NCBI RefSeq assembly: GCF_017348835.2
Contig: NZ_CP071375.1
From: Escherichia coli
Lineage (GTDB): Bacteria; Pseudomonadota; Gammaproteobacteria; Enterobacterales; Enterobacteriaceae
DNA: 64,000 bases
Strand: one strand, 5' to 3'
Shown: positions 2,291-5,236 of the stretch, in pieces
Position numbering within the stretch: position 1 is the stretch's first letter
Layout of the letters: each line of letters opens with the position of its first letter
Position numbers and translations under genes: made by a program
Notes under the pieces: generated by a model
Told to the model about the DNA's origin: nothing
Database searches by the model: none
Seen by the model: only the letters and a program-made list of their open reading frames with translations

Positions 2291-2316
2291 GCGCCATCGT
2301 TAGATGGCGCTTTTTA
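2291..2316 (+). terminator. intrinsic terminator downstream of ydcL
   Basis: GC hairpin gcgccatc-gtta-gatggcgc followed by TTTTTA, 9 nt after the ydcL stop. Confidence 0.7.
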
Positions 2317-2805
2317 TCCGGTGCGCCGTAAAACCCCGTCCTTCAGGGCGGGGATATAAGGCGCGGTTTTCCACCTAACAGGTGTTTGCTGTTGTTCAAT
2401 GTATTGGCGGATGACGGATATTGGCGCACCTCCGCAGCTACTGGCAAAATAGCCAGGACTCCACAAAACGCCTTTGTAGTAATACCTGACTGCAATATCT
2501 GGTCGATCTCGTCGCAGTAACCTACCCGATACGCCTTTGAGGCTGTTTACCAGACTGGATATCGCCAGTTTGGGAGGTTAGTTAATTAACAAATGGACGT
2601 GATCTGGTTCGCCATCCATTTCAACCAGTTCAGCTTCAAAATCAGCACATACATTTGAAAAGTAACTGCGTAGTTTTTCTGTCGCGTCATGGTCAAAAAT
2701 CTGGCGTCGGTATTTGGTGACAAAGACCAGGTGAACATGCATCAGGGAAACACAATGCCTTCCACGCCGGATATCGGTTTCTTTTTTCACAGACCAAAGT
2801 ATCAT
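2314..2805 (-). pseudogene. IS200-family TnpA (Y1 HuH transposase) interrupted by one in-frame TAA
   Basis: 75-aa ORF 2578-2805 with HuH-type motifs (HVHLVFVTKYRR, DHVHLL) stops at TAA; the same frame continues downstream with TnpA-like C-terminus (SLKGVSGRLLRR, LWSPGYFASSCGGAPISVIRQYIEQQ). Confidence 0.65.
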
Positions 2806-2812
2806 TTGACCT

Positions 2813-4021
2813 GTGAAACGATTACAGGCATTTAAATTCCAGTTAAGACCAGGTGGTCAACAGGAGTGTGAAATGAGGCGCTTCGCAGGCGCATGTCGTT
2901 TCGTTTTCAATCGTGCTCTGGCACGTCAGAATGAGAATCATGAGGCAGGTAATAAATACATCCCTTACGGGAAAATGGCTTCCTGGCTGGTTGAGTGGAA
3001 AAATGCCACTGAAACGCAATGGCTTAAAGATTCTCCCTCACAGCCATTGCAACAGTCACTGAAAGACCTTGAGCGGGCTTACAAAAACTTCTTCCGGAAG
3101 CGGGCTGCTTTTCCCCGATTCAAAAAGCGGGGACAGAATGATGCATTCCGCTACCCGCAGGGCGTTAAGCTCGATCAGGAAAACAGCCGTATTTTTCTGC
3201 CGAAACTGGGCTGGATGGGCTACCGGAATAGCCGTCAGGTCACGGGTGTTGTGAAAAATGTCACTGTCAGCCAGTCCTGCGGTAAGTGGTACATCAGTAT
3301 TCAGACAGAAAGTGAAGTATCCACTCCGGTTCACCCTTCAGCATCAATGGTCGGGCTGGATGCTGGCGTGGCTAAACTCGCCACGCTGTCAGATTGCACA
3401 GTCTTTGAGCCTGTAAACAGTTTTCAGAAAAACCAGAAGACGCTGGCGAGACTTCAGCGACAGTTAAGCCGCAAGGTCAAATTCAGCAACAACTGGCAGA
3501 AGCAGAAACGCAAAATACAGCGACTGCATTCCCGTATCGCAAATATCCGCAGGGACTACCTTCACAAAGTCACAACGACCGTCAGCAAAAACCACGCAAT
3601 GATAGTCATTGAGGATTTGAAGGTCAGCAACATGTCAAAGTCAGCAGCGGGTACGGTCAGCCAGCCGGGGCGCAATGTCCGGGCAAAATCAGGTTTAAAC
3701 CGTTCGATACTGGATCAGGGCTGGTATGAAATGCGCCGCCAGCTTGAGTACAAGCAGCTCTGGCGTGGCGGTCAGGTGCTTGCTGTTCCGCCAGCGTACA
3801 CAAGTCAGCGTTGCGCGTGCTGTGGTCATACAGCGAAAGAAAATCGCCTGTCACAAAGTCAATTCAGATGCCAGGTATGTGGATATACAGCGAACGCCGA
3901 TGTAAACGGCGCTCGTAACATTTTAGCGGCGGGGCACGCCGTTCTTGCCTGTGGAGAGATGGTGCAGTCAGGCCGCCCGTTGAAGCAGGAACCCACCGAA
4001 ATGATTCAGGCGACAGCCTGA
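2813..4021 (+). CDS. insQ: TnpB (IS605 OrfB family, RuvC-like RNA-guided nuclease)
   Basis: 402-aa ORF with GTG start; RuvC-I GLDAGV, RuvC-II IVIEDL, zinc finger CxxC...CxxC, Ruv[12 protein letters not shown]. Confidence 0.9.
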
Positions 4022-4060
4022 ACGTAGCAGGGATCCACGTCCTTCAGGGCGTGGAGGATG

Positions 4061-5236
4061 TCAATATCGGTTTCTGTCAGCGATTAAATTCAACACCACG
4101 TAACAAACGCCTCCGGCAATTAATCCCCAGAACGCAGAACCAATCCCGACCAGCGTCAATCCACTTGCCGTTACCAGAAATGCCACCACCGCCGCGTCGC
4201 GCTCACGCTCATTATGCAGCGCCTGATACAAACTTCCGCCAATGGTACTCAACAGCGCCAGACCTGCCAGCATCTGGATCCAACTTACGGGCAGGGCAGC
4301 CATCATCCCGGTAATGGCACTACCAAACAGACCTGCGAGCAAATAGAAAATGCCTGCAACGGCAGCTGCCAGCCAACGTTGATCTTTATCCGGATGCGCT
4401 TCCGGGCTTTGGCAAATAGCCGCGGTGATTGCCGCAATACCGACGGAATAAACGCCGAAAGGGGAAAAAACCAGTGCCAGCAATCCAGTAAATACAATTA
4501 ATGGCGAAACAGGAGCCGAATATCCGGCGGCTTTCATTGCTGCGATACCCGGTGCGTTTTGCGATGCCATCGTCACCAGAAAAAGGGGGAGTGCAACGCT
4601 CAGGCTGTGAGCAAACGCAAAATCAGGGGTAATATAAGTGGGGAGAACGGGTTTAAAGACAACATCAGTTGTGACAACGTCACCTTGCGCGATAACGATC
4701 ACGATCCCAATAATCATCGCGGCAATTACCGCATAGCGCGGCGCAACGGCCTTGGTTGCCAGCCATACCAGCAACATACTGCCACACAACGTAAATTGAC
4801 CGTCCAGACTGGCAAACGCCTGTAAACCAAAGCGTAATAAAATCCCGGCAAGCATTGCCGCCGCAAGCGAGTGCGGAATAATGCACATCAGACGAGCAAA
4901 GAGTCCCGTTATGCCGCAGAGGACTATTAACGCGTTGGTGACAATAAAAACGCCGATGGCTTCGTTAAGTGTTAGTCCCTGCAATCCGGTGACCAACAAA
5001 GCCGCGCCAGGCGTTGACCATGCGGTGAGAACAGGTACGCGATACCATAATGTCAGAGCCAGCGTACTGACGCCCATTGCCAGCCCCAGCGCCGTCATCC
5101 AGCCAGAGATTTGTGCAGTGGTGGCTCCGGCGACAATCGCTGCTTGCCAGATTATTGCCGCTGAACTGGCGTAGCCAATTAATACCGCCAGAAACCCCGC
5201 CAGTAGCGTGGGTGGAGGAACAGAAAACAGACGCAT
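4061..5236 (-). CDS. ydcO: YdcO BenE-family inner-membrane transporter
   Basis: Polytopic membrane ORF; start placed at the ATG preceded by GAGGT (MRLFSVPPP); the longer ORF start at 5359 runs into upstream sequence and is less likely. Confidence 0.85.
   Translation of the reverse strand: MRLFSVPPPTLLAGFLAVLIGYASSAAIIWQAAIVAGATTAQISGWMTALGLAMGVSTLALTLWYRVPVLTAWSTPGAALLVTGLQGLTLNEAIGVFIVTNALIVLCGITGLFARLMCIIPHSLAAAMLAGILLRFGLQAFASLDGQFTLCGSMLLVWLATKAVAPRYAVIAAMIIGIVIVIAQGDVVTTDVVFKPVLPTYITPDFAFAHSLSVALPLFLVTMASQNAPGIAAMKAAGYSAPVSPLIVFTGLLALVFSPFGVYSVGIAAITAAICQSPEAHPDKDQRWLAAAVAGIFYLLAGLFGSAITGMMAALPVSWIQMLAGLALLSTIGGSLYQALHNERERDAAVVAFLVTASGLTLVGIGSAFWGLIAGGVCYVVLNLIADRNRY

Follow-up and report, generated by a model that had tools for sequence, protein, structure and literature searches.

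IS608 of Helicobacter pylori (TnpA structures 2a6m and 2vjv) and ISDra2 (TnpA 2xm3, TnpB 8exa) are built like IS609 of Escherichia coli: their TnpA is a Y1 HuH transposase with a Tyr...Gln arrangement on the C-terminal helix, their TnpB carries a RuvC triad, subterminal hairpins stand at both ends, and insertion takes place 3' of a short target without duplication. The IS609 proteins are nevertheless distant from those of IS608 and ISDra2, with E-values of about 1e-20 for TnpA and 1e-54 for TnpB. The right end of IS608 finishes in TCAA, as that of IS609 does. tnpA and tnpB point in the same direction in IS608 and ISDra2 but are divergent in IS609, and the targets are TTAC for IS608, TTGAT for ISDra2 and TTAT for IS609.

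The IS609 insertion examined here, in a 64,000-nucleotide stretch of an E. coli chromosome (the window), is located between ydcL and ydcO and is shared with E. coli K-12, where it is the only IS609. Element, chromosomal site and divergent tnpA/tnpB layout are the same, and both K-12 and the window combine a tnpA pseudogene, interrupted by an internal stop, with an intact insQ (tnpB). The K-12 pseudogene has been printed as 'ynck' (PMC2891674); the K-12 copy was reported as non-transposing, and mutation-accumulation lines yielded no new IS609 among 758 IS insertions (PMC5009759). The two copies differ in how tnpA was broken: K-12 carries TTA>TGA at codon 96 and keeps TAT at codon 76, whereas the window carries TAT>TAA at codon 76 and keeps TTA at codon 96, and the natural stop was lost by TAG>CAG in K-12 and by a 1-bp deletion in the window. 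Intact IS609 also exists at other chromosomal sites, for example inserted in a TetR-family gene next to ytfB (TnpA WP_000604912 / WP_000604943; strains SJC33 and 121), with ~98% nucleotide identity to the window element. Its ends and tnpB length are alike, and its TnpA is an uninterrupted protein of 143 aa with Tyr76, ending in QQQTPG. Our reading of the window locus is that tnpA is very probably a decaying pseudogene and the copy non-autonomous, with tnpB, both ends and the cleavage sites apparently intact.

An IS609 copy between ydcL and ydcO

The window is E. coli chromosome with the gene order tehA-tehB-ydcL-IS609-ydcO-sutR, and by its sequence the segment 2318-4064 is one copy of IS609, of the IS200/IS605 family, with divergent tnpA and tnpB. 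Strain PE164 (NZ_CP114128.1) has 100% identity to a 1,801-base query across the element, and its PGAP annotation lists tnpA as an IS200/IS605 family transposase pseudogene with 'internal stop' and the downstream insQ as an intact 'RNA-guided endonuclease InsQ/TnpB family protein'. The tnpA defect is thus correctly read but already known, both in kind and in annotation, through this PGAP flag and the K-12 pseudogene.

We place the limits of the element at 2318-4064 because the joined flanks reproduce an uninterrupted empty site. The query was 80 nt of joined flanking sequence (...GCGCTTTTTAT followed by TATCGGTTTC..., the junction being TTTAT/TATCGG), and it was found without interruption, at 100% identity, in genomes that lack the element, with at least 80% query coverage in 2,020 genomes. 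The element inserted between ydcL and ydcO, within the T-tract that follows the hairpin of the ydcL terminator and on the 3' side of TTAT; this exact comparison shows no target-site duplication. For IS609 copies at other loci the match begins at window 2313/2314, and these copies too start directly after TTAT; the ydcL-ydcO copy occupies an identical position in all strains examined. IS609 accordingly inserts as its family does, on the 3' side of a fixed tetra- or pentanucleotide and without duplicating the target.

The ydcL-ydcO insertion is polymorphic in E. coli. Of 5,386 genomes, 2,020 have the exact empty site, among them the type strain ATCC 11775 and strains of O157:H7, and most of the others appear occupied at ydcL-ydcO, with the insertion in roughly 3,300 genomes. 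Strain HH45 was considered as an empty site and rejected, since TTTTTAT is followed there by ~20 G and a right-end remnant; of the IS609 right end, no more than the final ~22 nt are kept after the G-run (L005:413-460), which is probably an assembly artefact or a deletion. Strain 7/2 carries IS200C instead of IS609 at the same ydcL-ydcO spot (L006:413-1127), no more than ~2 nt from the point at which IS609 inserted into the ydcL terminator T-tract. The spot appears to serve as a hotspot for both of these IS200/IS605-family elements. In ~114 genomes the ydcL-ydcO flanks are <725 bp apart, yet no empty site is present.

The left end (LE; 2318..2372, plus strand), whose boundary comes from the empty-site comparison, contains a subterminal hairpin at 2334-2353 on the plus strand (CCCCGTCC-TTCA-GGGCGGGG; DNA fold -14.1 kcal/mol, z = -2.46) that is identical in alignment to the hairpin of intact IS609 copies. 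The right end (RE; 4022..4064, plus strand), bounded by the empty site and by copies at other loci, contains a hairpin at 4034-4055 on the plus strand (CCACGTCC-TTCA-GGGCGTGG; DNA fold -9.9 kcal/mol, z = -2.53), and the element finishes in GTCAA at 4064. Both hairpins are on the plus strand and have the common core CGTCCTTCAGGGCG; the ends of IS609 are marked by subterminal imperfect hairpins on the same strand, not by terminal inverted repeats. Directly 5' of the left end and outside the element, as the empty site and the other loci show, TTAT occupies 2314..2317 on the plus strand (TTTAT with 2313). It is the predicted cleavage and target site of TnpA and, by analogy with the family, the predicted TAM of TnpB, TTAT plus TATCGGTTTCTGTCAG being a predicted candidate target of TnpB. 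The hairpins and cleavage sites of the window copy look intact.

The interrupted tnpA gene

The window tnpA, an IS200/IS605 Y1 HuH transposase pseudogene, occupies 2314..2805 on the minus strand and consists of 75 codons, TAA, 87 codons and TAA. Retranslation of 2314-2805 on this strand reproduced every coordinate and sequence given in an earlier sequence-only reading of the same DNA: the translation of 164 codons runs from MILWS to DHVHLLIN, meets TAA, resumes with PPKLAISS, passes through RQYIEQQQTPVRWK and ends in RRTG before the TAA at 2314-2316. The premature stop is codon 76 (2578-2580, minus strand), which is TAT (Tyr) in intact copies, and DNA alignment with these copies reduces the change to a single T>A, at plus-strand 2578. 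The complete E. coli records that contain the exact 61-mer with TAA number 1,017, and strains of O26, O103, O111 and O121 are among them.

That reading had placed the stop between the HuH motif and the catalytic tyrosine, and alignment to IS608 TnpA (PDB 2a6m) confirms it. His69 and His71, in the His-Val-His motif of codons 69-71 (2593..2601, minus strand), fall on His64/His66 of IS608 TnpA; downstream of the stop, codon 135 (TAC; 2401..2403, minus strand) encodes the catalytic tyrosine, aligned to Tyr127, and Gln139, four codons past Tyr135, aligns to Gln131. That these aligned residues are catalytic in IS608 TnpA is known from the IS608 structural literature. Its second proposal, that the 87 aa beyond the stop are homologous to TnpA, also holds. 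The upstream 75 aa match NCBIfam NF033573 over profile positions 2-64 of 126 (E = 3.3e-20) and the downstream 87 aa over positions 66-126 of 126 (E = 1.4e-15), so that each half alone exceeds the curated cut-off and the stop corresponds to profile position 65; Pfam Y1_Tnp matches the downstream part over positions 60-121 of 121 (E = 1.3e-16). When Tyr is put in place of the stop, the resulting protein matches the Sulfolobus, IS608 and ISDra2 TnpA structures with E = 1e-17 to 4e-20. The gene is that of a Y1 HuH transposase, with His-u-His and catalytic Tyr, in a frame that is broken in the window copy.

The proposal of a single nonsense codon stood in part. TAA at codon 76 is the sole in-frame stop inside tnpA, but it is not the sole lesion. 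Compared with the intact 143-aa TnpA, the window gene also has a 1-bp deletion in codon 143 (2375..2382, minus strand; listed as G427-), where the intact CCT GGT TAG has become CCT GTT AGG. The deleted base lies near plus-strand 2379/2380, and the former TAG (2375-2377) has been shifted out of the frame; the natural stop is lost and the frame gains 20 codons, running through the LE hairpin to the TAA at 2314-2316 that overlaps the target site. The frame downstream of codon 76 has 87 codons, against 67 in the repaired wild-type gene, because the deletion removes the natural stop. This allele is young, as judged from its exact 61-mer, which only 13 records share. Among the copies compared, the substitutions F20S and T47S are restricted to that of the window; the intact copy and the structural homologues have an aromatic residue at position 20, which suggests that F20S may be damaging. 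K51N and A131V, by contrast, give no evidence of inactivation because they also occur in the intact tnpA at the yoaG-yeaQ locus. With several lesions in the window tnpA, reversion of the TAA alone would not restore the wild-type protein.

The proposed course of inactivation begins with TAT>TAA at codon 76, by which translation would end after 75 residues. The truncated product would keep the HuH metal-binding motif and lose the helix with Tyr135 and Gln139, and, to judge from the IS608 TnpA structures, would be unable to cleave or join single-stranded DNA; loss of activity is expected because the stop precedes the catalytic residues, Tyr135 among them. The later 1-bp deletion in codon 143, as well as F20S and T47S, would represent further decay.

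tnpB and the decay of tnpA across E. coli

The sequence-only reading had described tnpB as intact, and so it is. tnpB (insQ; 2813..4021, plus strand) is an open frame of 402 codons for an RNA-guided endonuclease, divergent from tnpA with a 7-bp gap between them, and intact in PGAP as well. It matches NCBIfam guided_TnpB (NF040570) with 382 bits against a cut-off of 100, and ISDra2 TnpB (PDB 8bf8/8exa) with E = 2e-54. Its RuvC triad is kept, Asp183, Glu267 and Asp363 aligning to the GVDVG, TEH and DRDEN motifs of ISDra2, and a CxxC...CxxC zinc finger is present; the accessory gene of this element is accordingly a tnpB with both the Asp-Glu-Asp triad and the zinc finger. From what is known of TnpB biology, an omega RNA (reRNA) scaffold is predicted at about 3894..4064 on the plus strand, across the 3' end of tnpB and into the right end. 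An Rfam search for omega RNA gave only matches below the gathering score (HgcC 22.2, sot0042 18.9 and RAGATH-18 25.4 bits), and a literature search on IS609 with TnpB, and on insQ, turned up a mention of the element in a TnpB screen and no functional study of it.

We compared the ydcL-ydcO copies of the window and 12 other strains, which represent 11 distinct locus sequences. All 12 other strains have a tnpA pseudogene and an intact insQ of 1,209 nt. The stop Y76* (TAA) is found in the window and PE164 and in F8111-1SC3, and together with a 5-bp deletion in H19 and O104:H4; L96* (TGA) is found in K-12, O157:H16, NCTC9038, SCU-152 and ET729; and E62* (TAA) is found in 035152 and AR145.2, and together with a 1-bp deletion in EC21Z-137. 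The TAG>CAG stop-loss is present in all ydcL-ydcO copies except those of the window's clade. Searched as a 57-mer, L96* is present in 2,597 records; E62*, searched as a 61-mer, is present in 719. Seven different disabling changes of tnpA thus segregate among the 11 distinct locus sequences.

The two genes differ in their substitutions. Of the segregating changes in tnpA, 4 are synonymous, 15 missense and 3 nonsense; three indel events come in addition, and the pN/pS-like ratio is 1.34. Over its 1,206 nt, insQ has 20 synonymous and 26 missense changes, lacks both stops and indels, and has a ratio of 0.37. In their synonymous/nonsynonymous counts the two genes differ only marginally (Fisher p = 0.058), in a sample of 11 distinct sequences that is affected by gene conversion. 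Several independent disabling mutations and a ratio near 1 show relaxed constraint on tnpA, within a small sample. The lack of any disabling change in insQ, the longer gene, is striking.

This pattern extends to the other sites of the element. tnpB is intact (1,209 nt) in all 17 IS609 copies at five loci, while tnpA is intact in 3 of the 17 and disabled in 14, by at least eight different lesions. Both genes are intact at yoaG-yeaQ; at yidH tnpA is frameshifted and at yhgE-hslO internally deleted, tnpB being intact in each. The yhgE-hslO copy of an ST131 strain (L020:2501-2760) has a 246-bp deletion corresponding to window 2361-2606, with loss of tnpA codons 67 onward, and retains the LE hairpin and an intact insQ.

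Alternative readings and implications

A copy whose transposase is dead in cis may still move if an intact IS609 TnpA from elsewhere acts on its LE and RE. The sequence-only reading had called the element immobilised. Its own transposase indeed cannot be supplied, but the word is too strong because the ends look intact and PE164 has a second IS609-related place; broken alleles at two loci point the same way. Mobility in trans would find what it needs in the window copy: both hairpins, the LE one being that of the intact copies, the TTAT site and the TCAA end, and some strains have intact tnpA genes elsewhere in the genome. The second place in PE164, which includes part of the tnpA 5' region, is consistent with it, and so is the occurrence of one broken allele at two sites, since the ydcL copy of EC21Z-137 (L016) and the yidH copy of ATCC 8739 (L018:2526-2956) have a common interior tnpA allele that combines E62* with a 1-bp deletion at T42 and six further changes.

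The details of these cases speak less for transposition. The EC21Z-137 and ATCC 8739 copies differ at the LE-proximal markers T430C and C469T, differences that fit gene conversion between copies better than transposition, and their mosaic structure is best explained by such conversion, ahead of mobilisation in trans. The window copy is also a mosaic, with Y76* present and T430C and C469T absent. In PE164, the second place is not at yoaG-yeaQ, where the site is empty, and BLAST of two 50-kb chunks of this genome (yoaG-yeaQ and near 4.6 Mb) found no IS609. Furthermore, the ydcL-ydcO copy stands at the same position in every strain examined. Mobility of the window copy in trans is, on this evidence, possible but on the doubtful side. 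As a separate observation on the PE164 chromosome, the order yjcO...malE in 4,580,000-4,630,000 (L021) is opposite to that of K-12, with ydcL and yeaQ in K-12 orientation; the reversed order indicates that PE164 carries a large chromosomal inversion.

Far less probable is that the TAA is read through or recoded to give full-length TnpA at a low, regulated level. The frame is open for 87 codons past the stop, and an ochre-suppressing tRNA-Tyr would restore the wild-type residue. UAA is, however, an efficient terminator in E. coli, and we know of no recoding signal in the IS200/IS605-type family. The stop is not conserved: codon 76 is an ordinary TAT in the intact copies, and the gene is broken in other lineages by stops at codon 62 or 96 or by frameshifts. 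Moreover, tnpA evolves as if neutral, and a second lesion lies downstream of the TAA. We reject programmed readthrough on these grounds. Least credible of all, and also rejected, are a sequencing or assembly error, given the TAA 61-mer in 1,017 independent complete records, and a TnpA that in this subgroup naturally ends after the HuH motif, given the 143-aa TnpA with Tyr76 of the same element and an NF033573 profile that spans both halves.

We retain the reading of the window tnpA as a decaying pseudogene in a non-autonomous copy. Alone it has little importance, being a routine case of an IS that loses its transposase. For annotation, the window IS609 copy is to be treated as non-autonomous, and within E. 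coli the tnpA allele (Y76*, L96* or E62*) marks the lineage. A mildly interesting thread is the rapid decay of tnpA against the lasting intactness of tnpB at the same fixed sites. The persistence of tnpB after loss of the transposase suggests selection or homogenisation. We put forward only tentatively, as an idea we hold to be rather unlikely, that selection keeps tnpB (insQ) at fixed IS609 sites long after tnpA has died; candidate reasons for its retention include retention or homing via the TnpA of other copies, gene conversion between copies, and a host function. If selection does keep it, the role of TnpB may be independent of the transposase of its own copy.
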